A stretch of DNA of 35,094 nucleotides from Candidatus Woesearchaeota archaeon (GTDB taxonomy: Archaea > Nanobdellota > Nanobdellia > Woesearchaeales > CG1-02-33-12): positions 1-35,094 of the forward strand of contig JAGYOA010000003.1 of assembly GCA_018399355.1 (NCBI GenBank), read 5' to 3'. The translations under genes were made by a program, and so were the position numbers. The notes under the pieces were generated by a model, which worked only from the letters and a program-made list of their open reading frames with translations, was not told the DNA's origin and made no database searches. Of this stretch, positions 5,173 to 35,094 are shown one piece after another; positions within the stretch are counted from its first letter, which is position 1, and each line of letters starts with the position of its first letter.

Positions 5173-5295
5173 TCAGCTTTGCATATTTTCAAAAGCCCTT
5201 TTTATCAGCTCAGGACTTGAGCCCCAAATTCCTGAGGACAAAACTAAGGGATTTTTTATTTTTATTCTGTTAATTTTTGTGCTTAAGTCTGTCAT
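5173..5295 (-). pseudogene. pyrD: Truncated dihydroorotate dehydrogenase (PyrD) N-terminal fragment, 40 codons
   Basis: Hand translation MTDLSTKINRIKIKNPLVLSSGIWGSSPELIKRAFENMQS*; matches the DLST...KNPxxLASG N-terminus of family 1 DHODH and stops where GAGAVVTKS should follow; lies directly downstream of upp-uraA. Not in the ORF track. Confidence 0.72.
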
Positions 5296-5360
5296 TTTAT
5301 ATTTCAGTTTATTTTTTCAATAACTTAAACTTTTCTACAAATAAAAAAATAAAAAATAAA

Positions 5361-6593: not shown

Positions 6594-6623
6594 TTTTACA
6601 CCCCCTTTATCGCTTAAAACGAT

Positions 6624-11865: not shown

Positions 11866-12539
11866 ATTACAAATAATAGTCCTGAGCTGCTCATTTTCAA
11901 CCAATATCCCTTGTATTTTTCCATTTCAGTTATTGTTCCATTTTCTGAAGATGCATTATAGTAATAATAAGTATCATCAGTTGTGTTGTACATCCACACA
12001 ATATCATAACTTCCACTTATTGTTTCCAATGCTTCTGTTATGTTTTTTGAGTTATTTGCAGGATAACCTATTAAGTTCCATCCCTCTGAAAGAGGTATCA
12101 TATTTGGTTGTGTTAGGGTTCCATTTATGTGAAAATTGTTTTGGTTTTTCATGTTTATCCAGTATCCTTTTAAGTCGCTTATTTCATTTAAATCATTCAC
12201 AACCCAATGCGGAAGGTCAGGATTGTATGCTTTCCATGGGTCTGTTTTATCATTTAGGTCATATCCATGGATAGAGGAATAATTTCCTTTTATGGATGAA
12301 AGAACAAAACTTACTGATTTGTTTTCAGTTGCGCAGGGATTTGATACAAGGTTCCATCCCTCAAAAAATGTTGCGCTGCAGCTGTGGTTTACAGTAAGCC
12401 CTGTAACAAAGACTTTTGTAATACTTATTGAACTTCCTATTATAGAGGGGTCTGTTATTATCTGTTTTATTGGAACTATGGTTATCAAAACTAGTAAAAC
12501 CAAAAGCACAACAATTAGTTTTGTTTTTTTGTCTTTCAT
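11862..12539 (-). CDS. Secreted/anchored protein with two GWNL...GYW repeats
   Basis: N-terminal hydrophobic segment; EGWNLVSNP...KGYWINM and EGWNLIGYP...KGYWLKM. Confidence 0.85.
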   Translation of the reverse strand: MKDKKTKLIVVLLVLLVLITIVPIKQIITDPSIIGSSISITKVFVTGLTVNHSCSATFFEGWNLVSNPCATENKSVSFVLSSIKGNYSSIHGYDLNDKTDPWKAYNPDLPHWVVNDLNEISDLKGYWINMKNQNNFHINGTLTQPNMIPLSEGWNLIGYPANNSKNITEALETISGSYDIVWMYNTTDDTYYYYNASSENGTITEMEKYKGYWLKMSSSGLLFVI

Positions 12540-12540
12540 C

Positions 12541-15090
12541 TTATGTCAGCTCCACATAAAAGTAATATGGTGTTGAACTTGTCCATGTTGGCGCTCCATT
12601 TTCCGGCACAATCATCTGGAAGTCAAACTGGTTATTGTTATATCCTGCAAGGTCCTGTTCGAGTATTGTTGCATAGACTATATCTCCATTTGAATGGTCT
12701 GTTCCGTCATAGAGTATTATCTCTTCAAAATCAGAGTCTTGTGATTCATTATTCACATTTGTATGGATCGAATAACATTGGTCTGTGTTTATTTTTATGC
12801 TTCCTATATACACCTCTTCATGGTTTTTAACATTGAAGGTTGCGGTTATGTTGTCATCTGGATTTGATGTATGGCTTAATGCAACCTCTTCATTATACAT
12901 ATGGGTTTCATTAGAGCAATTTATGCTCCCCCATGACACTGCTGTAGAGCTTCTTGTCGCATAAACCTCTCCTAAAACAGTGCTTAGTGTCCAGTCATAA
13001 ACAGAGTAATTATATGAATCTGCAAGAGTAAGCTTGCCTGAAACATTTCCAACAAATGCCTTCCATTTAAGGTTTTGCGCAGTCATATTGAGTTCCATTG
13101 TTGTTATTGAGCCGCCATTATTTGTCACATTAAATTCTGAAGGAATCAATTCAATAAAATCAAATGTTTCAGCCCCATTATATGATATAATCCTTATAGA
13201 TGAATCAAAATCACCAATCCATGGGTCTGTTGTTGCAGGAATATCTCTTAAGATGTCAAACTCATAATAATCTTTTACAATGAAATAAGAGCCCATTGTG
13301 CTGTTTACATCATCAGATAATGCGCTTACAAACAAGGAGTAATTTCCTTCTGCATTTGTTTCAGAATAAGATGCTTCATAAATCCCTTCTTCGGTTTCAA
13401 CTATTGTTTGTTCTGAAGTTGAGTAATGTGATGTTTCATTTGATGGGCTTGTAATTATCAACCCAACATCTGCATCAGTAACAAGCCTGCCCAATTTGTC
13501 CAAAACAACCATTATAATTTCTGCTTCCTCGCCTGGATGATAAATTGACTTTCTTGTGTTTACTGTTGCAACACCTATCTCAAACAACTGCTCTGAAAGC
13601 ATTGGCACATTCCATTCAACTTTGTCATAAAGGCCATTATTATCTGAGTCTATAAACTTAACATCATAATCAGGATTCTCTGTTACATCAATTTTTGAGT
13701 TGTTAATGAGATGATAAATCCTCAAATTTTCAATTCCCTCTGGTATATCCGAATAAGATTTTATATTATAATAGTGGAAAGAAACATCAGAGTGAATCTT
13801 TATTCTTTTTATTGCATTTCCATTCACATTGAAAATCTCATCTTTTATTGGCGCAGGGGTTTCATATTCAATATTATACTCTGTTTTGCTTTTATTTACT
13901 TTGTCTTTGATTACAAAATTCTTTTTGCTTTTACTTGTTCCACTAAATTCAAACAATGGCCCATCTTCAGAACGTCCAAGACTTAAAAGCGCACTTAATA
14001 TTCCTGTTCTTTTTTCATTTATCTCTTTATCATCTTTCTTTACAACAATATTTTCTGCTTTCTCAGGAACATCAAAATCAAGATTAACATCTCTTGATTC
14101 ATTTGCAAAATTTTCCAGGTTTATCTTTTTAGTCCACTTAACCGGTTTTCCAATCTCTGCATATCCTTGTTTTAAATTTTCAGTAGCATAAATGCTTTCA
14201 TTGTTTGAAGGCAGAACTGTCATAAAACTATTATTTGAGCTTGGCATCAAAATAATAGTTTCATTCCACTTTTGTATTTTAATTCCATCAAACCTAATAT
14301 CAACAGAATAATTCCCAGGGCTTAAATCAGATGTATCAATTTCAAATAATGCTTCACCATTTTCATCAGTTGTTCTTGTTTCAAAAAGATTATTGTTTAG
14401 ATACAAACTTATGTTCATAAGACTAATAGCACTATCATTAACATATTGAAGTGTTGAATAAACATTTTGAATTTCTCCTTTTGAAATCTCATTTTGCTCA
14501 ATATAATTAGTTATTCTTGTTCCTACACTTATTCCTTTCCTGAAAGCTGCATCAAGAGAGCTTATCTTGCTGTAATAAACCTTTGAGTAAGGATTTTCCT
14601 CCTTTAAACTATAATCAACATGAATAACCTGCGCACTTACTTCATTGTTGTTTGTTGCCCCGTATTTTCCATAATAAATGTAAAAGATATCATCCCACTT
14701 AGATGATGATGGACTCATTTCAATGAAATTGCAGCATTTTTCAGCCCCATAACATAAAGTCAAGGAGCTTTCATTTTCAATAGAATAAACATTCCATCTT
14801 GTGCAAAGATTGCTTTCATTCAATGACTCATCTATTTCTGTATTTTCAACATTAAAATCAACAATGCCATCTAATTTTTCAATTCCATCATTATCAGAAT
14901 CATAAGATGAATTTTTGTTGTACTCAATGTTTATCTTTATTTTACTTTGGTTTATATTATTCCCTATAATGCTGTCTGAAGCAAATATAAAAGGAATTAT
15001 AATTATTGATGAAACAAGGAGGAACATAATTAATGAGTTGTTTATCTTACCTAATCTTTTTCCCATTCCTCTTTTTATTTTAAGACTCAT
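12541..15090 (-). CDS. Large secreted beta-rich multidomain protein
   Basis: 849 aa; signal/TM segment, Ig-like stretches, D/N-rich loops (YDSDNDG, IDSDNNGLYD), distinct ~190-aa C-terminal domain ending YYFYVELT; ATGA overlap with upstream HTH gene. Confidence 0.85.
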   Translation of the reverse strand: MSLKIKRGMGKRLGKINNSLIMFLLVSSIIIIPFIFASDSIIGNNINQSKIKINIEYNKNSSYDSDNDGIEKLDGIVDFNVENTEIDESLNESNLCTRWNVYSIENESSLTLCYGAEKCCNFIEMSPSSSKWDDIFYIYYGKYGATNNNEVSAQVIHVDYSLKEENPYSKVYYSKISSLDAAFRKGISVGTRITNYIEQNEISKGEIQNVYSTLQYVNDSAISLMNISLYLNNNLFETRTTDENGEALFEIDTSDLSPGNYSVDIRFDGIKIQKWNETIILMPSSNNSFMTVLPSNNESIYATENLKQGYAEIGKPVKWTKKINLENFANESRDVNLDFDVPEKAENIVVKKDDKEINEKRTGILSALLSLGRSEDGPLFEFSGTSKSKKNFVIKDKVNKSKTEYNIEYETPAPIKDEIFNVNGNAIKRIKIHSDVSFHYYNIKSYSDIPEGIENLRIYHLINNSKIDVTENPDYDVKFIDSDNNGLYDKVEWNVPMLSEQLFEIGVATVNTRKSIYHPGEEAEIIMVVLDKLGRLVTDADVGLIITSPSNETSHYSTSEQTIVETEEGIYEASYSETNAEGNYSLFVSALSDDVNSTMGSYFIVKDYYEFDILRDIPATTDPWIGDFDSSIRIISYNGAETFDFIELIPSEFNVTNNGGSITTMELNMTAQNLKWKAFVGNVSGKLTLADSYNYSVYDWTLSTVLGEVYATRSSTAVSWGSINCSNETHMYNEEVALSHTSNPDDNITATFNVKNHEEVYIGSIKINTDQCYSIHTNVNNESQDSDFEEIILYDGTDHSNGDIVYATILEQDLAGYNNNQFDFQMIVPENGAPTWTSSTPYYFYVELT

Positions 15091-15608
15091 TTTATTTTCA
15101 TCAGTTTTTCATTTGCTCTTTTGTATGATGTCCATACAGTCCTTTCATTCCTGTTAAGAATATCGGCAATCTCATGGTTTCTCATACTTTCATTCTCTTT
15201 CAGATGTTTTGTAAGCGCTTCCAATAATCCAATATCACGGTTTGCAAACACAGAAACAGGAATATCTTTTGGGTTGTCTTTTAAAATAAAGCTGCCTTTG
15301 AACTTTTTCCTTGCATTATTGTAGCTCGCCCATATGATGCGGTCATCCCTGTTTAAAAGCAAGGCAATCTCATGGTAGCTAAGATTAAGCTTATCCTTAA
15401 GGTAGATAGTTAATGATTCAAGAATTCCAAGAGTTCTTTTTTTGAATATACAGCACGGAACATTTATTTTAGTTCCATTTTCTTTTTCCTTAAGAATATC
15501 AACGAATTTTTCAAGAGAAAGGTTATTTTTTTTAAGAATTGATTTTAAGAAAACCCCGACTGCATCTACTTCTCTCTCTAACTCTTTCTCTAACACTTGC
15601 GCTTGCAT
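15087..15608 (-). CDS. Tandem HTH (sigma-70 region 4-like) DNA-binding protein
   Basis: Two similar units: LGILESLTIYLK..LSYHEIALLLNRDDRIIWASYNNA and IGLLEALTKHLK..MRNHEIADILNRNERTVWTSYKRA. Confidence 0.8.
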   Translation of the reverse strand: MQAQVLEKELEREVDAVGVFLKSILKKNNLSLEKFVDILKEKENGTKINVPCCIFKKRTLGILESLTIYLKDKLNLSYHEIALLLNRDDRIIWASYNNARKKFKGSFILKDNPKDIPVSVFANRDIGLLEALTKHLKENESMRNHEIADILNRNERTVWTSYKRANEKLMKIK

Positions 15609-15665
15609 TAAATCCCTCTTTTTTTAAATTCCCTGTACTTCTATGAATAATTCTTAAGATTATTC

Positions 15666-15708
15666 TATTTAAATCTTTCTGTTTTATTACATATCTTGTA
15701 GGATAAAA
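15666..15708 (-). promoter_or_regulatory. BRE-TATA promoter of tandem-HTH operon with imperfect inverted repeat directly upstream
   Basis: Minus strand AGAAAGA-TTTAAATA (15680..15666); plus strand ttttattaca-N5-tgtaggataaaa (15682..15708). Confidence 0.55.
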
Positions 15709-15765
15709 TACATATTGTGTAAGATTTATAACCTATTCAGTAAGAAAAAAAGAATTAAAATATGA

Positions 15766-18255
15766 TTAAAACTGCCTTCCCATTCTTTTTTGCAGCTCAA
15801 TACATTTGTTAAATACAAGGGCCTTTTCATTCTTCGGAAGGTTCTTGTAAAGGAATTCTATTCTTGGGTAAAGGCGTTTTGCCTCTTCCATTTCATTGTT
15901 GTTCAGGTGGTTATGCCCCCATTCAACAAGCTCTTCTATTATATCAATCTCTTTTCTTGCTATTAACCTTCCTCCAAGCTCAGCGTATTTAGAATTTATC
16001 TCTTTCATGTTTAAATTTTTCATCTGCTTATCAAAATTATAACTGGCCCTGTTAAAACTCCTGTCTGCGCTATAGCTCCTTCCTATAAAAACCTGGTAGC
16101 CAACCAGGGCCCCAATAACTAAAATGCCTACAATTATGAAAATCATATCTCTCCTTTGTATTCCAAGGCCCATATTTAATATTGAGAAACCAGTCAGCTT
16201 GCTTATATCCTGCTCAAGCTGCACAGGCCCAATCAATGCAACAGACGCGCTGTTCTTTACATCATTTATATTAACCCTTTTGTCAACAATATATTTTATT
16301 TCCTGTCCTGTAAAACCTATTTCTGCAAACCCAAATTTTATTATAGGGTCTTCCTCTACAACATTATAATTCTTTGTCAAGAAGGTTATATCTGATGAGC
16401 TCTGCGCTATGCTCTTTGGGATTATTTCATATAATATTACATCCTTTGCACTTTCTGTGCCCTTGTATGATATTGATTTTATTATGAGACTTTTTTCCTC
16501 AATCTCATTATCAATAAATTCTATTTCAATATTGTACAATGTTACCAAAACCTCAATATTCTCCTGTATTTTCATATTCTGGTTTTTGTATTTTGTTTTG
16601 TCTATTGTTTCAAATTCAGGATTCTCAAATAATTTTTCTATTGCAAGGTCAATGCTTCCCTCTCCTAAACCCTGCACATTATCGCTTTTTTGTATAACAC
16701 TCACATCTCTTGGAGTTGTCTGCCTTATCTTCTTTAGCTCAAGCTCAATTTTATCAATCTCATTATCAAGCTGTGATTCTGTCATATACCTGTCTTTTAA
16801 TCCTTCAAAGTCATTTTTTATTTTTTCAAGTTTTGATTTTGCCTGGCTTATTTTTTCATTTAGGTTTAGATATCCAACAAGCTCTTTTTCTTCTTTATTC
16901 TTAAGCATTGAGGATATTTCATCTATATCTATGAGTAAAGTTTCAACTTTTTTTATTTCATCATTCACCTTATAAACAAGGTTTGGAGGCAGCACTTTCG
17001 GCGCCTCCTCCTTGCTTTCGCTTACACTCTCTTTTTCCTTTGATGAATCCTTTACAGAGGTTGCGTAAACCTCTTCAGAAAGCTGGCCCATGTTTCCTGC
17101 CTTGTCAACAGCATTTACCTTATAATAATAAGTTGCCCTGTCTTCTGTTGAATAGTCTATGAACCTTGTTATATTTCCTGTTTCAGAATAAAAGTCAAGA
17201 TAATCAACTCCTGATGAAGTTGACCTGTAAATTCTAAAGTAATCTATGTCCTCTCCCTCATAATACCAGTTAAGCTCAATTCTTCCGTCATCCCTTGATT
17301 TTGCCTCGATATTCACTGGTTTTGGCGGCTTTTTAGTGTCAACAACAAAGATTTTTCCCTCTTTTATTGTGTTGCCTGTTACTCCATTTTCATTTCTTCC
17401 TGAGAAATAAAATGTCCCGACTTTATTATCATCTGTTTCAGTTATTATCATATATCCTTTCCATATTCCCTCATCTTCTGCTAGGGAAACAAGCCTTTTT
17501 GATCCTGGGGATGTATCAAAACTGTATTCAAGTTTTGGAGTTTCCTGCAGTTCTTCTGATGGGATAAGTGTAACCTCGATTGTCCCTGCTGTCAAAGGAG
17601 ACTCATCACTTAAAACTATTTCAGCATAAGGAGGAAGGTCAATTGTAAATGTTATTTTCTCTGACTCATTCATCTTGTATCCGTTTAAGTCCTTGCATCT
17701 TACAAAATATTCATGCGTTCCATCTGAAAGCTCTGATATTATCTGTTTATGAGTCTTCTCCCCTGTAACCTCAAATGTTTTTGGCAGATTATCATAGTTT
17801 GCGTTGCTTGTTCCATACCTGCATGTAGCATCCTCATTTGTTGTTACTTCTAATGTTACTGAATCTGAGCTAACAACACCAGAAGGATATGTTGATAATA
17901 TTTCAGGAGCAGAACTCTGAATATTTCCTGTTATCTGCTTTGTGTCCACTATTGTTCCATTTGTTGCAATCAAGTCTGCAGAAATAGTATACTCTCCTGG
18001 ATTAATCCCCTTGAAGTTTCTTGTTATTTGTTTTGATAATGTGTTTTCGAGCTGTATTATCTCATCAGAAATGTCAAGATTGGTGTAATCAATGTATAAT
18101 GTCCCGTTAAAAGGAGAACTTGAAGAGAGTGAAACTGTTAATGTTTCAGTTTCGCCCTGCATCACTAAATTTGGGGCTGACAACCCTATTGATTCTGCAT
18201 GGACTACTGGAACTATTAAGATGAGTACCAATAGGGCTGTCAGTTTAGCGTTCAT
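15766..18255 (-). CDS. Cell-surface protein: signal peptide, Ig-like and fibronectin type III domains, coiled coil, TM helix, TPR-like cytoplasmic end
   Basis: MNAKLTALLVLILIVPVVHA signal; PPKP..IELNW..YFRIYRS..YYYKVNAVDKAGN FN3 pattern; TM MIFIIVGILVIGALVGY; C-terminal EEAKRLY..IEFLYKNLP. Confidence 0.87.
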   Translation of the reverse strand: MNAKLTALLVLILIVPVVHAESIGLSAPNLVMQGETETLTVSLSSSSPFNGTLYIDYTNLDISDEIIQLENTLSKQITRNFKGINPGEYTISADLIATNGTIVDTKQITGNIQSSAPEILSTYPSGVVSSDSVTLEVTTNEDATCRYGTSNANYDNLPKTFEVTGEKTHKQIISELSDGTHEYFVRCKDLNGYKMNESEKITFTIDLPPYAEIVLSDESPLTAGTIEVTLIPSEELQETPKLEYSFDTSPGSKRLVSLAEDEGIWKGYMIITETDDNKVGTFYFSGRNENGVTGNTIKEGKIFVVDTKKPPKPVNIEAKSRDDGRIELNWYYEGEDIDYFRIYRSTSSGVDYLDFYSETGNITRFIDYSTEDRATYYYKVNAVDKAGNMGQLSEEVYATSVKDSSKEKESVSESKEEAPKVLPPNLVYKVNDEIKKVETLLIDIDEISSMLKNKEEKELVGYLNLNEKISQAKSKLEKIKNDFEGLKDRYMTESQLDNEIDKIELELKKIRQTTPRDVSVIQKSDNVQGLGEGSIDLAIEKLFENPEFETIDKTKYKNQNMKIQENIEVLVTLYNIEIEFIDNEIEEKSLIIKSISYKGTESAKDVILYEIIPKSIAQSSSDITFLTKNYNVVEEDPIIKFGFAEIGFTGQEIKYIVDKRVNINDVKNSASVALIGPVQLEQDISKLTGFSILNMGLGIQRRDMIFIIVGILVIGALVGYQVFIGRSYSADRSFNRASYNFDKQMKNLNMKEINSKYAELGGRLIARKEIDIIEELVEWGHNHLNNNEMEEAKRLYPRIEFLYKNLPKNEKALVFNKCIELQKRMGRQF

Positions 18256-22946: not shown

Positions 22947-25900
22947 ATGGATGAAAATATTGCGGAAAAAAACACTGAAAAAAAACAGGAAAAAATAGTA
23001 AAAAGGCTTGTTTCAGAAGAGATGAAAGAGTCATACCTTTCATACTCTATGAGTGTTATAGTAGGCAGGGCCCTTCCTGATGCTAGAGATGGCCTGAAGC
23101 CAGTTCACAGAAGAGTTCTTTACACTATGTATGAGAATGGATTACTTCATAACAAGCCATTCAGAAAATCTGCAAATGTTGTTGGAAACTGCATGGCCAA
23201 ATACCATCCTCACGGAGATTCAGCTATTTACGATACTTTGGTCAGGATGGCCCAGGATTTTTCATTGAGATATCCTTTAGTTCAGGGTCACGGCAACTTT
23301 GGCTCAATTGATGGGGATTCTGCGGCTGCAATGAGATACTGTATTACAGGAGATTCATTAATATTGACAGATAAGGGGATGTTAGATATAAAAAATATTT
23401 CCAATAAAAAAGAAGCAAAAATTAATATGAAAATTTTATCTTTCAATAACAAAAAAAATACAGCTTCAAAATTTTTTAATTCTGGAAAACATGATATTAT
23501 TTCGTTGCAGACTAATTTAGGATATAAAATCAAGGGCTCATATAACCATCCAGTTATGTGCTGGGAAATAAAAAACAAAATTCCAGAAATACAATGGAAA
23601 CTTCTTGAAGATATTAAAGAAGGAGACATGGTTCTTTTGAATAGAAATTCATCCTTATTTGCAAAAGCAGATTTAAACTTAACCAAATTCAAGCCAAAAT
23701 TCAACAAGAAAACAAAGAGCATACAATTGCCTTCAAGGATGAACAAGGAATTGGCTTTTTTATTAGGGGCTCTAATTTCAGAAGGCTCTTTCCATCAAAA
23801 TAGAATATATTTTAGTAATTCAGATATGGAATTTTATAATTATGTGAAAAAAATAATTTATGACCAATTTAAAGGAGTTTTATTATATGAAAGAAAAATA
23901 ACTGGAAATTGTTTAGAGTTAAATATTTATCATAAAAATATTGTTGATTTTTTAAAAAACATAGGCTTTAAGGATGAAAAGTCAAACAAAAAAGAGATTC
24001 CATTTTCAGTATTGCAATCATCTAAAAAGGTTGTTTCAAGCTTTTTAAGGGGTTTATTTGAAGGGGATGGCTCAGTTATATACAAAACAGACAAAAGGCA
24101 CAATGGAAAAAGCATTGAGTTAACCTATAATTCAAAAAGCGAAGTTTTGATCAACCAATTAAAAATTTTATTGCTAAATTTTGGGATAGTTACAACACAT
24201 CCTTACAAAGACAAAAGAAACGGGTGTTATAAGCTAATAATTTCTGGTTATTATTCCATTAAAAAATTTAAGGATGAAATAAACTTTTTCTCAATAAGAA
24301 AAAAAGAAGCTGTTCTTAAAATTGATGAAATAAACTCAAAAAGGATGAGCAAAACAGATTATATTCCTTTTTTAAGCGCTTATCTAAGGAAAAAGTATAA
24401 ATCAACCTTTATAGCAAAAAATAATTTTGACAGATACTCTAATTTAGAAAAAAATTATAACAAATTAACAGCAATTATTGATGGAAAGGACAAGAAAATT
24501 ATTGATATGCTTATTAAACAAAAATACTTGTTTGATAAGGTAAATTTAACCAAAAAACTGGATAAAAAAGAAGAAGTGTTTTCAGTGAAGGTTAACAGCA
24601 ATTGCCATTCTTTTGTTTCTAATGGATTTATTAACCATAACACAGAAGCACGCCTTCCAAAAATCTCAGAAGAGATAATGGAAGATATTGAAAAAGATAC
24701 AGTTGATTTTAATCCAAATTTTGACGGCTCTGCAAATGAGCCATTAGTTCTTCCCTCAAAGGTTCCAAATCTTCTTTTAAACGGTTCATCAGGAATTGCA
24801 GTTGGAATGGCCACAAATATTCCTTCTCATAATCTTAATGAGGTTGCGGATGCAATAATAAAGGTTATTGACAATCCAGATACAAACATTGATGAGCTCA
24901 ATCAGATAATTAAAGGGCCAGACTTTCCTACAGGTGCTTTAATCTGCGGAAGAAACGGAATAAAAAGCGCTTACAGCACTGGAAGAGGAAAGGTAATAAT
25001 AAAATCAAAAGCAGAAATAACAGAAGAAAAAGGCAAAAAAAGAATCATTGTTTCTGAAATTCCATATATGGTCAATAAGGCTGTGCTCATGGAACAGATA
25101 GCTGATAATGTAAGAAACAAAGTAATAGAAGGAATATCTGATCTTAGGGATGAATCTGATAGAGAAGGAATTAGGATAGTTATTGAGTTAAGAAAGGATG
25201 CAAATTCTGAGGTAGTGCTTAACCAGCTTTACAAGCACACAAGGATGCAGGACTCTTTTGGGATAATAATGCTTGCCCTTGTTAAAAACCAGCCAAGGGT
25301 TCTTAATCTTAAAGAAATCATTCTCTGCCATATAAACCATAGAAGAGATGTAATAAGAAAGAAAATACAGTTTGAACTTAAAAAAGCAGAGGAAAGAGCA
25401 CACATTCTTGAAGGGCTTAGGATAGCTCTTGCCAATATAGACTCTGTTGTTGACATGATAAAAAAAGCAGAATCAACTGAAGATGCAAGACAGGTTTTAA
25501 TGAGTGCATTCAGCCTTACAAAAAAACAGGCAAATGCTGTTCTTGACATGAAACTCCAGAAATTAAGCTCCTTGGAACAGAAAAAGCTAAAGCAAGAGCT
25601 TGAGGAACTTATTAAGAAAATAGAGGAATACAAATCAATACTTGCATCAGAGCAAAAAATCCTTGATATAATAAAAAAAGAGCTTATTGAGCTCAAGCAA
25701 AAATATGGTGATGAGAGAAGAACACAGATTATTGATGGAGAGGAAGAAGATATAGATATAGAGGATTTAATAGAAGATGAAGAGGTTGTTATAACTGTAA
25801 CTCATGCAGGATACATAAAAAGGATCCCTTTAACTGAATACCGCGAACAAAGAAGAGGGGGGAAAGGAGTTATAGCAACAAGAACGAGAGAGGAAGATTT

Positions 25901-26699
25901 TGTTGAAAATATATTCATCTCATCTACACATTCATACCTTTTATTCTTTACAAACAAAGGAAATGTTCATTGGCTAAAAGCTTACAAGGTTCCTGAAGAA
26001 TCAAAACAGGCCAAAGGAAAAGCAATTGTAAACCTTCTTGAACTTAAGGATGAGTATGTAACCACTGTTATTCCAATAAAGGAATTCAATAAAGGTTATT
26101 ATCTGTTTATGGCTACAAAAAAAGGTTTTGTAAAGAAGACAGAACTTGACTTGTTTTCGAGACCAAGGGCAGGAGGAATAAGGGCATTAAGCCTGGATGA
26201 AAATGACGAACTGGTAAATGCAGTCCTTACAGATGGAACAAAGAACATTCTTCTTGCAACAAAAAATGGAATGGCTGTAAAATTTAAGGAAAACAATGTT
26301 AGGCCTGTTGGAAGGACAGCAAGAGGAGTTAGAGGAATAAGGCTAAAAAACAATGACGAGATAATAGGAATGATAATGGCCCATGATGCTTACACCCTTC
26401 TTACTGTTACAGAAAATGGATATGGAAAAAGAACAAAAATAGAAGATTACCGCCTTATAAACAGAGGTGGCTCAGGAGTTATAAACATTCAATGCAGTGA
26501 GAGAAATGGAAAAGTTATTGCAGTTATGTCTGTTGATGGTGAAGACGGAATAATCATAATTAGCAGAAAGGGAATTGTGATAAGGATGCTTTCAAGCGGA
26601 ATATCTGTTATTGGAAGGAATACCCAGGGAGTAAGATTAATGAGATTAAGCGATGATGATAAAGTAGTTTCAGCAGCAAAAGTAATCAATGGCGAATAA
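22947..26699 (+). CDS. gyrA: DNA gyrase subunit A, intein-containing (816 aa after splicing)
   Basis: RALPDARDGLKPVHRR, YHPHGD, AAAMRY|TEAR, GIAVGMAT, GyrA box QRRGGKG, C-terminal beta-pinwheel repeats. Confidence 0.97.
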   Translation: MDENIAEKNTEKKQEKIVKRLVSEEMKESYLSYSMSVIVGRALPDARDGLKPVHRRVLYTMYENGLLHNKPFRKSANVVGNCMAKYHPHGDSAIYDTLVRMAQDFSLRYPLVQGHGNFGSIDGDSAAAMRYCITGDSLILTDKGMLDIKNISNKKEAKINMKILSFNNKKNTASKFFNSGKHDIISLQTNLGYKIKGSYNHPVMCWEIKNKIPEIQWKLLEDIKEGDMVLLNRNSSLFAKADLNLTKFKPKFNKKTKSIQLPSRMNKELAFLLGALISEGSFHQNRIYFSNSDMEFYNYVKKIIYDQFKGVLLYERKITGNCLELNIYHKNIVDFLKNIGFKDEKSNKKEIPFSVLQSSKKVVSSFLRGLFEGDGSVIYKTDKRHNGKSIELTYNSKSEVLINQLKILLLNFGIVTTHPYKDKRNGCYKLIISGYYSIKKFKDEINFFSIRKKEAVLKIDEINSKRMSKTDYIPFLSAYLRKKYKSTFIAKNNFDRYSNLEKNYNKLTAIIDGKDKKIIDMLIKQKYLFDKVNLTKKLDKKEEVFSVKVNSNCHSFVSNGFINHNTEARLPKISEEIMEDIEKDTVDFNPNFDGSANEPLVLPSKVPNLLLNGSSGIAVGMATNIPSHNLNEVADAIIKVIDNPDTNIDELNQIIKGPDFPTGALICGRNGIKSAYSTGRGKVIIKSKAEITEEKGKKRIIVSEIPYMVNKAVLMEQIADNVRNKVIEGISDLRDESDREGIRIVIELRKDANSEVVLNQLYKHTRMQDSFGIIMLALVKNQPRVLNLKEIILCHINHRRDVIRKKIQFELKKAEERAHILEGLRIALANIDSVVDMIKKAESTEDARQVLMSAFSLTKKQANAVLDMKLQKLSSLEQKKLKQELEELIKKIEEYKSILASEQKILDIIKKELIELKQKYGDERRTQIIDGEEEDIDIEDLIEDEEVVITVTHAGYIKRIPLTEYREQRRGGKGVIATRTREEDFVENIFISSTHSYLLFFTNKGNVHWLKAYKVPEESKQAKGKAIVNLLELKDEYVTTVIPIKEFNKGYYLFMATKKGFVKKTELDLFSRPRAGGIRALSLDENDELVNAVLTDGTKNILLATKNGMAVKFKENNVRPVGRTARGVRGIRLKNNDEIIGMIMAHDAYTLLTVTENGYGKRTKIEDYRLINRGGSGVINIQCSERNGKVIAVMSVDGEDGIIIISRKGIVIRMLSSGISVIGRNTQGVRLMRLSDDDKVVSAAKVINGE
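23340..24641 (+). mobile_element. Intein with LAGLIDADG homing endonuclease (434 aa, residues 132-565)
   Basis: Starts CITGDSLI directly after catalytic Tyr131; block B GSYNHP; LLGALISEGS and FLRGLFEGDGS endonuclease blocks; ends FVSNGFINHN followed by +1 Thr. Confidence 0.96.
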
Positions 26700-26871: not shown

Positions 26872-27738
26872 ATGAAAGCTTATCTTGATATAATTAAGAG
26901 TATTATTGATAAAGGAGTTCTTAAGAAAAATCGTACAGGGGTTGACACCATTGCAGTTGCAGGGGTTATGTTTGAGCATGATATGAAAGATGGTTTTCCT
27001 CTTTTAACAACAAAAAGTGTTCCTTTAAGGTTAGTTGCTTCTGAGCTTGAGTTCTTCATAAAAGGAATAACAGATAAAAGATGGCTTCAGGAAAGAAACA
27101 ATCATATCTGGGATGAGTGGTGCACTCAAAAAAAAGTGCCTTACAACCATGATGAGGAAACAAAGAAAAAAATGTCTGAAGAGCGCGACCTTGGGCCGAT
27201 ATACGGATGGCAGTGGCGAAATTTTGGTGCAAAGTACGATTCTTTTGATAAAGAGCCAGTTGGAAATGGAATAGACCAATTAAAAAATCTTGTTGAAACA
27301 TTGAAAAAAAATCCAAACGATAGAAGAATGATTGTTTCAGCTTGGAATCCTGTTGATTTAAAGGATATGGCTTTGCCGCCATGCCATTACTGTTTCCAGG
27401 TTACTGTTATTGACGGCAAGTTAAATCTTTTATGGAACCAGCGCTCTGTTGATGTTGCCTTAGGATTGCCATTTAATATAGCGAGTTATGGTTTGTTATT
27501 GCACTTGCTTGCAAAAGAAACAGGGCTTAAGGAAGGAAAATTAGTTGGTTTTTTAGGAGATACTCATATTTATGTAAACCATTTAGATGGTTTGAAAGAG
27601 CAGATTGAAAGAAAGCCACTTCAACTCCCAAAGATAAAAACAGAAAAATTTACATCAATATTTGAATGGAAATATGAGGATTCAATTGTTGAGGATTACA
27701 ATCATCACCCAAGAATAAAATTTGAGGTTGCTGTATGA
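26872..27738 (+). CDS. thyA: Thymidylate synthase (bacterial-type ThyA)
   Basis: RTGV, FPLLTTK, IWDEW, DLGPIYGWQWR, ALPPCH, QRSVD..LGLPFNIASY, DTHIY; GAGGT SD. Confidence 0.97.
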   Translation: MKAYLDIIKSIIDKGVLKKNRTGVDTIAVAGVMFEHDMKDGFPLLTTKSVPLRLVASELEFFIKGITDKRWLQERNNHIWDEWCTQKKVPYNHDEETKKKMSEERDLGPIYGWQWRNFGAKYDSFDKEPVGNGIDQLKNLVETLKKNPNDRRMIVSAWNPVDLKDMALPPCHYCFQVTVIDGKLNLLWNQRSVDVALGLPFNIASYGLLLHLLAKETGLKEGKLVGFLGDTHIYVNHLDGLKEQIERKPLQLPKIKTEKFTSIFEWKYEDSIVEDYNHHPRIKFEVAV

Positions 27739-28229
27739 AAGATATTATAATAATTGCTGCTGTTGCTGAGAACAATGTTATTGGAAAAGATGGAAAAATC
27801 CCCTGGCATATAAAGGAGGATTTCCAACATTTCAAAAAACTTACAATGGGATGTCCATGCATTATGGGAGACAAAACATATGAGTCACTTCCAATAAATC
27901 CATTACCTGGAAGAGAAAATATCATACTAACCTTTAATAAAGATTATCATCCAGAAGGAACAGTTGTAAAATACTCATTTGAGGAAGCATTAGAGCATTG
28001 CAAAAACAGTGAAAAAATCTTCATAATAGGAGGAGCAAGCATATACAAACAGGGATTGAAGTTTGCAAACAGAATGGAGCTAACAAGAATACATAAAAGC
28101 TATGATGGAGATACTTACTTTCCTGAGTTTGATGAAAATGAATGGATTATTGAGAAAAAGAAAGACCATGGAAAATATTCGTTCATAAGCTATGTTAAAA
28201 AAGGAGGTAATGAAGATGATAAATCTTGA
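27735..28229 (+). CDS. folA: Dihydrofolate reductase
   Basis: [40 protein letters not shown]; ATGA overlap with thyA. Confidence 0.96.
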
Positions 28230-29517
28230 TGAGCTTAATAAGTCAGACCATTTAGTTGCAGATGCAGTTAAAATGGAGCTTAACAGGCAGCGCAATTCTG
28301 TTGAATTAATCGCGTCTGAAAACTTTGTTAGCATCCCTGTACTGCAGGCAATGGGAACTTGGCTAACAAACAAATATTCTGAAGGATATCCACACAAAAG
28401 ATACTACGGCGGAAATAAGTTTATTGACATGAGCGAGGACTTGGCAATAGAAAGGGCTAAATTATTATTTGATGCAGAGCACGCAAATGTGCAGCCGCAT
28501 GCAGGAAGCCAGGCCAACATGGAAGTTTATTTTGCACTGCTCAACCTTAAAGATAAAATTTTAGGAATGGACTTATCACACGGCGGCCACCTAACTCATG
28601 GAAGCCCTGTAAATTTCTCAGGAAAGTTTTATGATTTTGTTTCATACGGAATTTCAAAAGAAACAGAAAGAATTGATATGGATGAGGTAAGAAAAATTGC
28701 ATTAAAGGAAAAACCAAAACTGATTTTAGCAGGCTACAGCGCTTATCCAAGGAATATTGATTTCAAGGAATTCAGGGAGATTGCAGATGAGGTTGATGCT
28801 TATTTAATGGCAGATGTTGCTCATTTTGCAGGAATTATTGCTGCAAGAAAGCACATGATGCCCTTTCCTTATTGTGATGTTGTAACAACAACAACACATA
28901 AAACATTAAGGGGACCAAGGGGAGCGATGATACTCTCTATGCAGGAAGACCGCTTAAAGGAAAAATATCATCCTGATTCAAAGAAAAATCTTGCGAGAAT
29001 GATTGATTCTGCTGTCTTTCCAGGAATGCAGGGCGGCCCATTAGATCATGTGATAGCTGCAAAGGCAGTTGCTTTCGGAGAAGCTTTAAAACCCGACTTT
29101 AAGGATTATATAGAGCAAGTATTGAAAAACGCAAAAGCACTCGCAAGTGATTTAATGTATCATGGATTTAAGCTAATAAGCGACGGCACAGACAATCACC
29201 TTATGCTTATTGATTTAAGCAATAAAGATGTTACAGGAAAACAGGCAGAAGCTGCTTTAGATGAGGCAGGAATAACATGCAATAAAAACATGGTTCCATT
29301 TGATGAGAGAAGCCCATTTGACCCAAGCGGAATAAGGATTGGAACTCCTGCAATAACCACCAGGGGATTTAATGAAAATGACATGAAAGTAATTGCAGAC
29401 TCAATGAACAAAATAATTGAGAACATAAATAATAAAGAAATAATTGAAAAGGTAAGGCAGGATATTGTTGAGATTTGCAATGAGCATCCTCTTTATCCTG
29501 AAATAAATCTTGATTAA
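28216..29517 (+). CDS. glyA: Serine hydroxymethyltransferase (bacterial-type)
   Basis: [42 protein letters not shown]; start set at ATG 28216 behind GGAGGT (28210 also possible). Confidence 0.96.
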
Positions 29518-29518
29518 T

Positions 29519-30205
29519 ATGAAGGGAAAACTTATTGTTATAGCAGGAACAGACGGAAGCGGAAAAGCAACGCAGGTTAAGTTTCTTGAAGAGAAACTAA
29601 TAAGAAAAGGTTATGATGTTAAAGTAACTGATTTTCCACAGTACGGCCAGAAAAGTGCTGCGCTAGTTGAAGAATACCTTAATGGAAAGTACGGCTCTCC
29701 TGAAGATGTTGGACCTTACAGGGCATCTATATTTTATGCATGCGACAGGTATGCTGCATCATTTAAAATGAAGGAATGGCTTGATGAGGGCAATATAATC
29801 ATTTCAAACAGGTATGTTTCCGCAAACATAGGTCATCAGGGAGGAAAAATAAATGATATCAATGAAAGAAACAAATACCTTGACTGGCTTTTTGACCTTG
29901 AGTTTAATATTTTTGGGATTCCGAGGCCAGACAAAAACATACTTCTTTATGTTCCACCTGAAGTAAGCCAAATGCTTGTTGACCAAAAAGACTTAAGAGA
30001 ATACATAGAGAACGGAAAAAAAAGAGACATACATGAGGAAAACTTAAATCATCTTAAGAATGCTGCTGATGCTTATCTTTATGCTGCTGAAAAATACAAC
30101 TGGGATAAGATTGAATGTGCGCCTAATGGAAAACTCAAAACAAAAGAAGAGATTTCAGAAGAAATTTGGGAAAAGGTAATTGATCTGATTAAAACTGATT
30201 CTTAG
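29519..30205 (+). CDS. tmk: Thymidylate kinase
   Basis: GTDGSGKATQ P-loop, DFPQY, YACDRY, SNRYVSAN, DIHE; ATG 29519 follows the glyA stop. Confidence 0.9.
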   Translation: MKGKLIVIAGTDGSGKATQVKFLEEKLIRKGYDVKVTDFPQYGQKSAALVEEYLNGKYGSPEDVGPYRASIFYACDRYAASFKMKEWLDEGNIIISNRYVSANIGHQGGKINDINERNKYLDWLFDLEFNIFGIPRPDKNILLYVPPEVSQMLVDQKDLREYIENGKKRDIHEENLNHLKNAADAYLYAAEKYNWDKIECAPNGKLKTKEEISEEIWEKVIDLIKTDS

Positions 30206-30240
30206 ATAGATTTATAAATTTCTTTATTAAGCCAGATAAG

Positions 30241-31434
30241 ATGAAGCTTACAGACATTGATATAAACTCTATTGAAAAAGTCTTATTGGTTGAGAGAAAG
30301 GCAAAGACATTTGGTCTTGAGGGAATAAAAAAATTTCTAAGCTTGATTGGAAATCCTGAAAAAAAATTAAAGATAATCCATGTTGCAGGAACAAACGGAA
30401 AAGGTTCTGTGTGCGCAATGATATCATCTGTTTTAAATGAAGCTGATTTTAACGCAGGTATGTTTACTTCTCCTCATTTAATAAAAGTCAATGAAAGGAT
30501 AAGGATTAATGATGAGCTTATAAGTGATGAGAATTTCAGAAGAATAGCTGATTTTGTTTACGAAAAAGAGAAGGAGAATAACATTAGCTTAACTTTTTTT
30601 GAAACATTGACAGTTATGGCCTTTATTTACTTTAATGAAAAGAAAGTTGATTATGCTATTATGGAAACAGGAATGGGCGGCCGCTTGGACGCAACAAATG
30701 TTTCACAGCCAATAATTTCTGTTATAACAAATATTGGTTTAGAGCATAAAGATGTTTTGGGCAATACAATAAAAGAGATTGCAAATGAAAAGGCGGGAAT
30801 CATAAAGTCAAATACAACAATTGTTACAAGCGCAAAAGGAAAAGCGCTTTCTGTTATTGAGAATATTGCTGAGAAGCATAACTCAAAACTTGTTGTTGCA
30901 AAAAAACTTAACAATATTGAGTTAAGATTAAAAGGAGAGTATCAAAAAGAGAATGCCTCAACTTCATATGCAGCTTTAAAGGAGATTGGTTTAAAAGAAG
31001 ATGTAATATTAAACGGGTTGAAGAAGGCTTACTGGCCGGGCCGTTTCGAGTTCATAGGTGGAAATATCTTACTTGATTGCGCCCACAATCCAGACGGAAT
31101 AAATGCTCTTGTAAATTCTATAAAAAGGCTTGAGTACCATAATCTTATAGTTGTTATTGGAGTTATGAAAGATAAGGATATTAGTTCAATTGAAAAAAAG
31201 CTTGAAAAACTTAATCCTTTTGTTATTGCAACAAAGGCCTCTGTATCAAGGTCAAAAGAGCCAGAGGAAATTGCAAAATATTTTGAAAATGCAGTGGTTA
31301 TACCTAACTTAAAAGATGCAATAAACCACTCTATTGAAAAAGCTGAAAAAAATGATCTTGTGTTAATAACAGGCTCAATCTTTGTTGTTGGAGAGGCATA
31401 TCCTTTTCTTACTAAACATTTAAATAAACTGTAA
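30241..31434 (+). CDS. folC: Folylpolyglutamate synthase / dihydrofolate synthase
   Basis: IHVAGTNGKGS, FTSPHL, ETGMGGRLDATN, EKAGII, WPGRFE, DCAHNP, TGS; own TTTATAAA box at 30211..30218. Confidence 0.95.
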   Translation: MKLTDIDINSIEKVLLVERKAKTFGLEGIKKFLSLIGNPEKKLKIIHVAGTNGKGSVCAMISSVLNEADFNAGMFTSPHLIKVNERIRINDELISDENFRRIADFVYEKEKENNISLTFFETLTVMAFIYFNEKKVDYAIMETGMGGRLDATNVSQPIISVITNIGLEHKDVLGNTIKEIANEKAGIIKSNTTIVTSAKGKALSVIENIAEKHNSKLVVAKKLNNIELRLKGEYQKENASTSYAALKEIGLKEDVILNGLKKAYWPGRFEFIGGNILLDCAHNPDGINALVNSIKRLEYHNLIVVIGVMKDKDISSIEKKLEKLNPFVIATKASVSRSKEPEEIAKYFENAVVIPNLKDAINHSIEKAEKNDLVLITGSIFVVGEAYPFLTKHLNKL

Positions 31435-32588: not shown

Positions 32589-32627
32589 ATCAAAAGGTTT
32601 ATAAATAATATTTATTAAGGAGATAGT

Positions 32628-33398
32628 ATGGAAAAAAGAGGTCAGGTAAGCATATTTATAATCATTGGATTTGTTTTTATCATCACTATATCCTTGTTTT
32701 TTTTAATAAGGAACACCAATTTAAAGTTTGGCTTTGCAGGTTCCCCTGACACAAGGCCGATAGAACACTACATTGAGCTTTGCATAAAATCATCTGCTTC
32801 TGATGCTATTTATCTTGCAGGTATGCAGGGCGGCTACACAACAACTCCAAATATTTACTTTGAGTCAGGTTATGCAAGAACAGCATACTGGTATAATCAA
32901 GGAGAAGACACTTCTCCTAATGTAGAAGAAATAGAACAGGAGCTTTCATCTTACATAAACAATGTTTTGCCTGACTGTATTGAGAGCCTTAGGATTTTTG
33001 AGGATATGGGATATGAATTTGAGTTTGGAAACCTTAACACAGAAGCAACCATATATGAAAACAAAGTTGATTTTAATATTCAATATCCTATAAAAATAAA
33101 GAAAGGAGAATCAATTTCAGAGATAAAAGATTTTCAGCAAAGCTTTGATGTGAGGCTCGGGCATATAATTAATATAGCAAAAGAAATAGTTGAAATGGAA
33201 ATTAATGATCCAGACTGGATAGACATGACTTACATGACAGAGCAGGACATTGATTTTAAGATTTATCCATATGATGAAAACATAATAATTTATTCATTGG
33301 TTGATACTGATTCAAAGATAAGCAACAACCTTGACTTCGTATTTCTTTTTGCTAACCGTTTCAATGAAAGCGGGCAAGCTTTAAATAAAAATGAATAA
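32628..33398 (+). CDS. Class III signal peptide (pilin-like) protein
   Basis: MEKRG|QVSIFIIIGFVFIITISLFFLI; YIELC, GMQGGY, LPDC; promoter CAAAAGG-TTTATAAA at 32591..32605. Confidence 0.8.
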   Translation: MEKRGQVSIFIIIGFVFIITISLFFLIRNTNLKFGFAGSPDTRPIEHYIELCIKSSASDAIYLAGMQGGYTTTPNIYFESGYARTAYWYNQGEDTSPNVEEIEQELSSYINNVLPDCIESLRIFEDMGYEFEFGNLNTEATIYENKVDFNIQYPIKIKKGESISEIKDFQQSFDVRLGHIINIAKEIVEMEINDPDWIDMTYMTEQDIDFKIYPYDENIIIYSLVDTDSKISNNLDFVFLFANRFNESGQALNKNE

Positions 33399-35094
33399 AA
33401 AGAAGATTATTTCCTTAGTGAAAACTCCTTTAATTTTCCTAGTTTTATTCTCTTTGTTGTTGGTTTCTGTTTATGCTCCAGTTTCGCAGGATTTATTAGA
33501 CAAACTTAAAGACAGATATGATATTGATAACCAGGAATCTGATTTAGAAAATGAAGATACTACTTCTAATACTGATTCAGGAGATGCATATGAAAATGAA
33601 GATGATATCCTTAGCGATTTAAATGATGTTACATTAGATGAAGGCAATCTGGATGTTTCAAAATCAACAGGAAGCACTACTCTTTCAAGTGAGGAAATAG
33701 AAACATTAGGACTCAAAAAGATTTTTTCAAAGAATGAGGTTATTAATATTGAGAATGCAAACATTGAGCTAATATCTATTAAGGATGGAATTACAAAAAT
33801 TACATTTGCAAAATCAGACACGGCTAATGAAATAACCTTTGAAGTTAATGGTGAAACACATACAGTAAGTGCTGAAAAGGGAACAGTTGAATGGATTGAT
33901 GGAGAGATGATTTTCAGTGAAGGAGTAACCATTAAAACACAGGATGGAAAATCATTTACATCATTGCAAGAAGGAACAAAAATAAAACTGGGAGAAGTAA
34001 CTGAAGTACAGGGAAAGGCATCTCTTGAATACAAACAGGATTTTTTAGCTGAGATTAAAGTTGTTGGAAAAGATAGTTCTCTTTTCATAGAAAAATCAGA
34101 AAATGAAAAAACAGAATTTACAACTATTGATGGAAAAGATATGACAATAACAACAGGAGAGTTTCACAACAGCGAGGAATGTCAAGGAAACTGCATTTCT
34201 TACAAAGATATGGGGGCATGGAGCAAGGCAAAGATTGACGGCAATGTACTCTTTGTTAAATATACTGGAGATGAAAAAAGAACAGTAAGGTTTGAGGATA
34301 AAAAGGTTTATCTTTACTCAAAGGACGACCTTAAAACATTTCAGAAAGAGTATGATTTTGTTCAGAAAATGGTAATAAATTACAACAATGGCATACCTGT
34401 AGTAGTTGAAAATACAGGAGAGGTCAAGACAGATACATATGAATTTTATGATGAGCAAAATCCAGAAAAAGTTGTTGTTGAAAATCAAGATACACCAATA
34501 CCTGAAACTCAAAACCCACAAACCCAAAAAGTTACTGAAGGACAACTTACAGAGTTTGAAAATAAGGCAAAAACTGTGATAATAAACGGAGAGTCCCTAT
34601 ATGACAAGGTCACAGAAATCTACAATGAGTATGAAGGAGGAGATATTTCCAAACAATTGTTTATTTCATTAATAGAAAAAGAATCTTTAATGGATGAAGA
34701 GGGAGCATATTATTATTCTTATGGATTAACCCAGTCAACATTAAGCTCGGTAAAAGATTTGATATTAAATGAGCCAGATGAATACAGCAAATACAAGGAT
34801 TACAGCGATGAGGAGATTGTTAACCTGCTTAAGTCAGACCCAGTTTTTAATTTAAGAGCAGGATTTGATTATCTTAAACGAATTGAGGAACATTATGGAA
34901 GATCTTACGGCTTTTCAGAACCAAAGCAAACATATAATTATGATGGTGATGAAGTTGATATTTACCTCCTGGCTTACAATGCAGGCCCAACAGTAACAAA
35001 CAAGCTAATGAAATCATTCAATGAAGAAGGGGGAGGAGACTGGGAAGACTTAAAGATATTCATTAATTCAGATAAAGGAGTATCAATCCTTGGG
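33391..35094 (+). CDS. Secreted protein with lytic transglycosylase (SLT)-like domain; 3' end outside window
   Basis: Open frame of 568 codons without a stop, read by hand; signal peptide MNKKKII...VSVYA; LFISLIEKES (E431), YGLTQ, DPVFNLRAGFDYL, LLAYNAGP. Not in the ORF track because it lacks a stop. Confidence 0.85.
   Translation, partial: MNKKKIISLVKTPLIFLVLFSLLLVSVYAPVSQDLLDKLKDRYDIDNQESDLENEDTTSNTDSGDAYENEDDILSDLNDVTLDEGNLDVSKSTGSTTLSSEEIETLGLKKIFSKNEVINIENANIELISIKDGITKITFAKSDTANEITFEVNGETHTVSAEKGTVEWIDGEMIFSEGVTIKTQDGKSFTSLQEGTKIKLGEVTEVQGKASLEYKQDFLAEIKVVGKDSSLFIEKSENEKTEFTTIDGKDMTITTGEFHNSEECQGNCISYKDMGAWSKAKIDGNVLFVKYTGDEKRTVRFEDKKVYLYSKDDLKTFQKEYDFVQKMVINYNNGIPVVVENTGEVKTDTYEFYDEQNPEKVVVENQDTPIPETQNPQTQKVTEGQLTEFENKAKTVIINGESLYDKVTEIYNEYEGGDISKQLFISLIEKESLMDEEGAYYYSYGLTQSTLSSVKDLILNEPDEYSKYKDYSDEEIVNLLKSDPVFNLRAGFDYLKRIEEHYGRSYGFSEPKQTYNYDGDEVDIYLLAYNAGPTVTNKLMKSFNEEGGGDWEDLKIFINSDKGVSILG

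Follow-up and report, generated by a model that had tools for sequence, protein, structure and literature searches.

Overlapping genes at a contig end of a Woesearchaeota-type DPANN archaeon encode a class III-signal protein and a divergent, putative SLT-type enzyme that may act on foreign peptidoglycan

The window analyzed here is the whole of contig C23 (JAGYOA010000003.1, 35,094 nt) of the Candidatus Woesearchaeota archaeon GCA_018399355.1, a genome (G000) of 0.92 Mb in 85 contigs that is rated 97.5% complete. The last two open reading frames (ORFs) of this contig, ORF1 and ORF2 (SLT1), are best explained as the opening pair of a gene cassette for the cell surface in a DPANN archaeon of the Woesearchaeota type. 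ORF1 starts with a class III signal like that of prepilins, and ORF2 encodes a predicted secreted protein with a C-terminal domain resembling the lytic transglycosylases (SLT, GH23). The reading that we favor, to which we give an even chance, is that an anchor with a class III signal presents translationally coupled, secreted GH23-type enzymes whose target would be foreign peptidoglycan, probably that of bacteria. The debate on whether Woesearchaeota-type DPANN archaea depend on bacteria or on other archaea rests largely on genes with SLT domains. The locus links such enzymes to the most widespread class III-signal family of the order, and thereby suggests how they may be held at the cell surface. 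The two genes and the parts of ORF2 are as follows.

32628..33398, plus strand: ORF1, 256 aa, with a class III signal, a hydrophobic stretch of ~20 residues and a globular domain of ~220 residues.
33391..35094, plus strand: ORF2 (SLT1), 568 codons, 3'-open at the contig end, secreted, with an SLT/GH23-like C-terminal domain.
33391..33477, plus strand: putative Sec-type signal peptide, ORF2 residues 1-29 (...VYA/PV, the slash marking the cleavage site), from composition and hydrophobicity.
33481..33675, plus strand: acidic linker, ORF2 residues 31-95, with 21 D/E among 65 residues (32%).
33676..34560, plus strand: family-specific N-domain, ORF2 residues 96-390, with an invariant CxGNC, from alignment columns.
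34645..35025, plus strand: match to the Pfam profile SLT (PF01464), ORF2 residues 419-545.
34681..34683, plus strand: codon of Glu431, the putative catalytic acid of the E-S motif, from its invariance in orthologs.

The N-terminus of ORF1, MEKRGQVSIFIIIGFVFIITISLFFLI, contains a class III signal cut as MEKRG/QVSIFIIIGFVFIITISLFFLI, and shows the features by which pilin signals are recognized, namely basic residues at the N-terminus, Gly at position -1 and a subsequent hydrophobic stretch of about 20 residues. The most hydrophobic 19-residue window spans residues 9-27 (mean Kyte-Doolittle 3.15). Residues K3, R4 and Q6 are nearly invariant in a 13-row alignment (A2), the exceptions being one row with KRA and one row without the N-terminus, and the genome encodes a prepilin peptidase (Peptidase_A24, C9:2098-2439, 58.7 bits) along with a second, weaker copy on C47. 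Thus, both the KRG/Q signal and a cognate peptidase are in place. The globular domain of ORF1 has two conserved cysteines, Cys52 and Cys117, and no family match to ORF1 was found in Pfam or NCBIfam.

The ATG of ORF2 at 33391 is located within AAAAATGAATAAA, such that the frame overlaps the end of ORF1 (TAA, 33396-33398) by 8 nt. An earlier note on this DNA, made from the sequence alone, had described an ORF at 33391 that overlaps the stop of a gene with a KRG/Q class III signal, and had ascribed to its product a signal peptide, an acidic linker and the SLT motifs in the correct order. This description is borne out by the overlap and the conserved signal of ORF1, by residues 1-30 of ORF2, which contain four K/R, no D/E and a hydrophobic core in an N-terminus that is conserved in the homologs, by the 32% D/E of the linker, and by the four motifs LIEKES (427-432), YGLTQ (444-448), DPVFN (483-487) and AYNAG (528-532). 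Six homologs of ORF2 were identified with E-values from 1e-90 to 1e-249, so that ORF2 is more than a chance open frame. The full-length homologs are 591-611 aa long and the copy in locus L002 is 589 aa, which means that ORF2 is missing about 21-43 C-terminal residues. The N-domain is shared with the paralogous SLT2 proteins (27-31% identity) and matched no Pfam family; nor did ORF2 match any NCBIfam family.

Membership of ORF2 in the SLT (GH23) family is supported by sequence similarity for its protein family, and is marginal for the window protein alone. The Pfam SLT profile matches four of the seven orthologs at E<=0.01 (best 2.1e-6), and two proteins score above the cut-off, the SLT2 paralog in L002 (29.5 bits) and the ortholog in L003 (21.7 bits). 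A six-frame search gave 20 bits for the SLT domain of ORF2, or 22.7 bits with its neighbors in frame. The SLT motifs are defined as G-L-x-Q and A-Y-N-x-G. In all seven ortholog rows, E431, S432, G445, T447, Q448 and A528-P533 (AYNAGP) are invariant, as are the catalytic Glu and Y-N-x-G in 8/8 SLT1 and SLT2 domains. In a search of the PDB with a profile of the SLT1/SLT2 domain (A3), the lytic transglycosylase MltC ranked first and second, albeit with E-values (0.051 and 0.23) that are not significant, and the E-S, GLxQ and AYN of the profile align with those of MltC (E-S of 4c5f). For comparisons in the Atlas, in which stored orthologs stand in for the window protein, the three feature clusters nearest to ortholog P0006 are SLT (0.90, 0.88, 0.88), and the low-confidence model of this protein (predicted template-modeling score, pTM, 0.42) yielded a TM score of 0.74 by the row of a 198-aa SLT protein and 0.27 by the query. 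We regard the domain of ORF2 as a divergent member of the GH23/SLT type that retains the catalytic dyad, with a putative fold and activity. The lysozyme-like SLT domain with an intact Glu-Ser pair that the earlier note had recognized is thus supported by the Pfam matches in the family and by the invariant motifs.

The genome was searched for four families of murein synthesis, SEDS, PBP transpeptidase, MurA and Mur ligase. None of the first three was found in this 97.5%-complete genome, and the sole match in the search for the Mur-ligase fold was a folC-like gene in a thymidylate/folate cluster. Since none of these murein-synthesis genes was found, any peptidoglycan substrate would be foreign. 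At least three SLT genes are assembled in the genome. The other two are canonical, located on C2 and C56 (38 and 35 bits), and their SLT regions are 69% identical. The first (C2:13064-14182; L017:3064-4182) encodes a protein of 372 aa and is preceded by three small ORFs with hydrophobic N-terminal segments, one of which starts with MKKRGM. The second (C56:18792-20891; L018:2792-4891) encodes a protein of 699 aa with many hydrophobic N-terminal segments, as judged by eye, and is followed by three lipobox-like paralogs. Among SLT proteins of other families (L114, L118 and L119), some have class III-like starts, such as ...NKKG/T... and MNKRA/M..., as detected with a lenient regular expression only.

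We propose that the ORF1 product, once cleaved by the prepilin peptidase, would stay in place as a membrane-anchored or pilus-like stalk. Translation of ORF2 would be coupled to that of ORF1 via the 8-nt overlap and yield a Sec-secreted protein of about 590 aa, the N-proximal module of which probably docks on the ORF1 product. The GH23/SLT domain, with Glu431-Ser432, would then cleave the beta-1,4 glycan of peptidoglycan, and a paralogous second SLT gene would follow, as in the relatives, here falling into an assembly gap. The substrate would be foreign, presumably bacterial cell walls, and the activity could serve attachment, local breaching or scavenging. Docking, surface display, enzyme activity and a bacterial target are the parts of this scheme that we infer. 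The locus offers a small, tractable pair, a partner of 256 aa and an enzyme candidate of about 590 aa with a clear putative catalytic residue.

An ORF1 gene followed by a gene in the SLT slot, with overlapping or abutting frames, was identified in this genome, L002, L003, L004 (genome G142) and genome G010, and a second, paralogous SLT gene (SLT2) comes next in L002, L003 and L004. In L003, SLT2 (4623-6869) is split into frames of 547 aa and 156 aa with the GYNAGP half in the second, which reflects either a frameshift or an assembly error. In our genome, the SLT2 paralog is expected to lie in the gap between C23 and contig C26; the continuation was located by homology, in that C26 opens with a GT-C gene. 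Of the k-mers of at least 17 bases in the final 200 bases of the window, none recurs on another contig, and the first 235 bases of C26 encode a 72-aa ORF that is not the tail of SLT2. Of the 201 sampled genomes of the order, 120 contain an SLT domain of any kind, and an SLT1-type neighbor within 1.5 kb was seen in none of 27 ORF1-like loci outside family f1 (one of them from the unpublished genome G183). Only one of 18 scanned ORF1-family loci has an SLT domain in the downstream protein. This locus, in G197, contains an independent pair of an ORF1-like gene, the best ORF1 match outside the clade, and an SLT protein (54.9 bits) with a weak LysM match (E 0.013) and a faint N-proximal similarity to SLT1 (E 8e-6). 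The linkage of ORF1 and SLT genes is therefore real but local, and no rule for the Woesearchaeota.

The ORF1 family itself is broadly distributed, with 1-12 matches per genome in 188/201 genomes, a tally that includes three genomes flagged as unpublished (G183, G121 and G112). In the Atlas, the relatives of ORF1 are solely hypothetical proteins of the Nanobdellota, in forms of about 250 aa and 660 aa. T2SSE-type ATPases and platform proteins are encoded on contig C1, where two long ORF1-family paralogs (713 and 636 aa) are located near ATPase and FlaJ-like genes, and no gene for an assembly ATPase or platform protein was found in the 35-kb window with ORF1. At 19 of 20 extended loci from other families, a large frame follows the ORF1-like gene and adjoins or overlaps it; the shortest of these frames has 236 aa, truncated where the contig ends, and the longest has at least 5,875 aa. 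Because the family is usually located upstream of the frame for a large secreted protein, ORF1 looks like a header gene for such a protein rather than a classical pilin. The largest frames directly downstream of ORF1-family genes are at least 5,875 aa in L109 (G007:C1), 5,427 aa in L111 (G092:C5) and 4,967 aa in L112 (G070:C24). At E<=0.001, Pfam scans of these giants (in L109, residues 1-1,775 and the C-terminal 3,000 of the at least 5,875; in L111, all but ~420 of the 5,427 residues) returned only TPR repeats, a stretch resembling PP2C in L109 and a single match below threshold in L111, and no SLT domain was present in the scanned parts.

A possible exchange of catalytic domains was observed in G010, where the gene after ORF1 (L057, G010:C39, 3169-5199, minus strand) encodes a secreted protein of 676 aa in the SLT1 slot. 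Only a 40-residue N-proximal module is common to this protein and SLT1 (hhalign probability 94.7%, E 5.6e-8, 40 columns), corresponding to ORF2 residues 108-147, and from this similarity we consider the module a candidate docking piece for ORF1. The C-terminal domain contains an invariant Cys/His motif, HCWD...PGD...GHN.IF, and belongs to no named family. Sixteen relatives of the domain were recovered at E<=1e-3 in an exhaustive search; of the 14 that were scanned, one has an adjoining GH73 glucosaminidase and another shows weak similarity to NlpC/P60 across the Cys/His domain. Should this domain prove to be a murein peptidase or amidase of the papain-like kind, for which the matches offer a lead, two types of peptidoglycan hydrolases would occupy the same slot, which would point to peptidoglycan as their common target.

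One broader hypothesis is that ORF1-family proteins are dedicated headers that anchor or export the secreted protein encoded next downstream, via a short N-proximal docking module. The cargoes would be interchangeable, including SLT enzymes, the Cys/His hydrolase and giant proteins from 2,000 aa up to more than 5,800 aa, and the result would be a modular, pilin-primed system for effector display throughout the order. We put this forward tentatively, as a suggestion that is more doubtful than probable. Should this rule of header plus cargo hold, a family found in nearly all sampled genomes of the order would gain a function, and the wall-degrading cargoes of this clade would imply that these Woesearchaeota have bacterial hosts or prey.

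In the close relatives, the cassette is followed by a putative glycan-synthase module. The order ORF1-SLT1-SLT2-GTCa-GTCb-GT2-thioredoxin-like, with tight spacing, is seen in L002 and L004; in L003 it reaches the contig end through GT2, and it is partial in G010. The membrane-anchored thioredoxin-like protein follows GT2 in L004, and the L002 and L003 loci do not extend that far. In our genome, the set from GT-C to the thioredoxin-like gene opens contig C26 (C26:236-5118; L016). GT-Ca and GT-Cb are paralogous GT-C-type membrane proteins (PMT_2/YYY-like) of 496 and 488 aa. The GT2 proteins are 415-419 aa, and the copy on C26 has the motifs DAD, TED and QRNRW; processive GT2 enzymes are characterized by the motif set D, DxD, TED and QxxRW. 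The ortholog in L004 matches PgaC_IcaA with an E-value of 4.7e-49, under the equivalog cut-off. Pfam scans of the module genes turned up no deacetylase or porin-type partner. With a presence in 160/201 genomes, GT-Ca is a near-core gene of the order. It is followed by GT-Cb in 25 of 27 loci outside family f1, and none of the 27 has an SLT or ORF1-like gene within 1.5 kb. In G197, the ORF1-like and SLT pair and GT-Ca are on different contigs. The adjacency of the SLT genes and the glycan module thus looks clade-specific, within a compact run of genes on a single strand.

Several observations weigh against the reading that we favor, a surface-held enzyme directed at foreign peptidoglycan. To our knowledge, the hosts of DPANN archaea, in culture or otherwise known, are archaea. 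The window protein itself scores 19.4 bits (E 8e-4) with Pfam SLT, under the cut-off of 21.3 bits. Its whole-protein profile (A1) found nothing in the PDB at E<=1, the single C-terminal domain gave chance-level matches only, and the MltC matches of the domain profile were not significant. An hhalign comparison of the SLT1/2 domains with the two canonical SLT domains of the genome reached a probability of 31.5% over 51 columns, and the Pfam scan detected no peptidoglycan-binding domain (LysM, SH3, PG_binding) in ORF2. For the Cys/His domain in G010, the match to Pfam Amidase_6 (E 0.0096) was under the cut-off, and a PDB search with its profile (A6) yielded no relevant match. The SLT1 family is limited to 4/201 genomes, namely the three members of family f1, including G000, and a genome of another family with a weak match, and a clear ORF1-family neighbor within 1.5 kb was seen at none of the 30 best SLT loci, one of which has a weak match (E 4.7e-4). 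Finally, the proximity of the cassette to the glycan-synthase module in close relatives makes a self-directed role possible. The earlier note had proposed a muralytic enzyme on or near a pilus-like appendage that is used against bacteria, and had named conservation of the gene pair across the Woesearchaeota as a check. The SLT family, the class III signal, the local coupling and the lack of detected murein genes lend the proposal partial support, and adjacency of pilin-like and SLT-slot genes was recovered in five related genomes and in G197. An order-wide linkage was not (4/201, 0/30 and 1/18).

The self-directed alternative, which we regard as unlikely, is that the SLT-like proteins act on an N-acetylhexosamine polymer produced by the PgaC-like GT2 and the two GT-C proteins, which they would trim or release much as the hydrolases do in bacterial synthase-dependent exopolysaccharide operons. 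It draws on the shared gene order in L002, L004, L003 and partly G010, on the position of the glycosyltransferase part at the start of C26 in this genome, and on the motifs and PgaC_IcaA match of GT2; moreover, GH23 enzymes are able to act on chitin-like glycans. However, GT-Ca is near-core in the order, GT-Cb follows it at 25 of the 27 non-f1 loci, an SLT or ORF1-like neighbor is lacking within 1.5 kb at all 27, and the pair in G197 is not on the contig of GT-Ca. All genes of the window from ~20 kb onward are on one strand of a compact genome, so that adjacency by itself is weak evidence, and a pure polysaccharide would offer no substrate to a peptidase-like domain such as that encoded in the G010 slot. 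Rather improbable, in our view, is also the related idea that the substrate is a foreign glycan other than murein, such as chitin, pseudomurein or the envelope glycan of an archaeal host. The divergence of the SLT domain, the lack of a murein-specific binding module in the Pfam scan of ORF2 and the archaeal hosts of known DPANN would fit this idea, and any LysM in the G197 relative is weak, a module that in addition binds chitin. On the other hand, the motifs of family 1 lytic transglycosylases are intact, the nearest Atlas clusters and PDB matches are murein transglycosylases of bacteria and phages, and pseudomurein has beta-1,3 links that resist lysozyme-type enzymes.

Alternatively, the SLT-like domain could be a non-catalytic adhesin that solely binds glycan strands for attachment, consistent with its low similarity to canonical SLT domains and with a role in attachment alongside "bind and degrade" as proposed by Castelle et al. 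(PMC8204110). We consider this very unlikely, in that the Glu-Ser, GLxQ and AYNxG motifs are invariant both in orthologs that are 41-73% identical to ORF2 and in the paralogs. A pilin-like gene next to an SLT gene, in a genome with T2SSE-type ATPases and platform proteins on C1, could also be taken to suggest that the enzyme makes space for the pilus or secretion machine of the cell itself, as do the transglycosylases of bacterial type III/IV secretion systems and flagella. With none of the searched murein-synthesis genes in the genome there would be no wall of its own to breach, and neither an ATPase nor a platform gene is present in the 35-kb window, which makes this explanation highly improbable.

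The remainder of the window is in line with an archaeal origin. We considered and rejected the possibility that C23 is a contaminant contig from a bacterium, because it encodes PCNA, an archaeal-type RNase J and an intron-bearing tRNA, and its synteny is common to four relatives. The names of close homologs at NCBI are Nanoarchaeota or Candidatus Woesearchaeota. Two elements upstream of ORF1 may contribute to its expression.

32598..32607, plus strand: TATA-box-like element TTTATAAATA, read from the sequence, in the 39 nt that separate ORF1 from the preceding THUMP methyltransferase gene.
32617..32622, plus strand: AAGGAG, Shine-Dalgarno-like, 5 nt upstream of the ORF1 ATG, with a presumed role in translation.

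The element TTTATAAATA is a possible promoter of the ORF1-ORF2 unit. Farther upstream, the gyrA gene (22947-26699, plus strand) encodes 1,250 aa including an intein with a LAGLIDADG homing-endonuclease domain (Intein_splicing and LAGLIDADG_3), and the orthologs in L004 and G010 are 808 aa without an intein. The compact thymidylate/folate cluster (26872-31434, plus strand) consists of thyA, DHFR, SHMT, thymidylate kinase and the Mur-ligase-fold gene that is best read as folC-like. The tRNA gene (2301-2429, minus strand) is 129 nt long and matches the full 71-position Rfam tRNA model with 47.4 bits, a length that implies an intron. Three large ORFs (863, 849 and 829 aa) at 9313-18255 on the minus strand have weak Ig-like/MG2 matches and are accompanied by a 173-aa ORF with a helix-turn-helix domain like that of sigma-70 region 4; this group may be another cluster of surface proteins.

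The central idea, that SLT proteins of DPANN archaea act on bacterial walls, is already published. It was proposed by Castelle et al. (2021; PMC8204110), and Vigneron et al. (2022; PMC9723730) suggest predation based on GH23, with GH23 genes in metagenome-assembled genomes from Lake A and in AR20. A study in PLoS Biology (2025; PMC12352652) describes other archaeal peptidoglycan hydrolases that kill bacteria, and cites the genes from Woesearchaeota. A term search in a survey from 2026 on type IV filament systems of archaea gave no mention of transglycosylases, and we found no paper, supplements being outside the scope of the search, on the pairing of a pilin or class III signal with a transglycosylase in Woesearchaeota or DPANN. 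The tight pairing with a class III-signal gene is the new detail, and the elements added here are the coupled header gene, the tandem SLT paralogs and the possible exchange of the catalytic domain in one slot.

In comparison with known systems, our locus resembles the DPANN SLT/GH23 proteins described in the two former papers (PMC8204110, PMC9723730) in the tiny genome, the secreted SLT/GH23 protein and the proposed role against cell walls. It differs from them in size, about 590 aa with an N-domain of its own as compared to up to 3,000 aa, in the restriction of SLT1 to one family-level clade (4/201), in the tandem paralogs and in the coupling to a class III-signal gene. The archaeal peptidoglycan hydrolases in PMC12352652, prominent in Nanoarchaeota there, are likewise archaeal enzymes aimed at bacterial murein, but those tested were haloarchaeal M23 (zoocin-like) peptidases, and the SLT proteins from Woesearchaeota were cited, not tested. 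The bacterial family 1 lytic transglycosylases (Slt70, MltC and MltD; PF01464, GH23) share the order of motifs, and MltC is the best PDB match; ORF2 departs from them in its score below the Pfam cut-off, in an insertion between motifs II and III, in accessory domains that are not TPR/superhelical or LysM, and in its host, an archaeon in which none of the searched murein-synthesis genes was found. Synthase-dependent exopolysaccharide operons, such as PgaABCD and Bcs, contain a dedicated hydrolase, and similarly a PgaC-like GT2 with QRNRW here sits beside enzymes of a glycan-cleaving type, but the adjacency of hydrolase and synthase is not kept outside one clade (0/27 non-f1 GT-Ca loci). Archaeal class III signal proteins and type IV pilins with Gln at +1 are represented by the EppA substrates of Methanococcus maripaludis, which have, like ORF1, a KRG/Q motif followed by a hydrophobic helix, and a prepilin peptidase is encoded in this genome as well. 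Unlike these pilins, ORF1 contains a 220-residue globular domain without a Pfam match and has no adjoining ATPase or platform gene, and its relatives head operons for large secreted proteins instead of pilin clusters.

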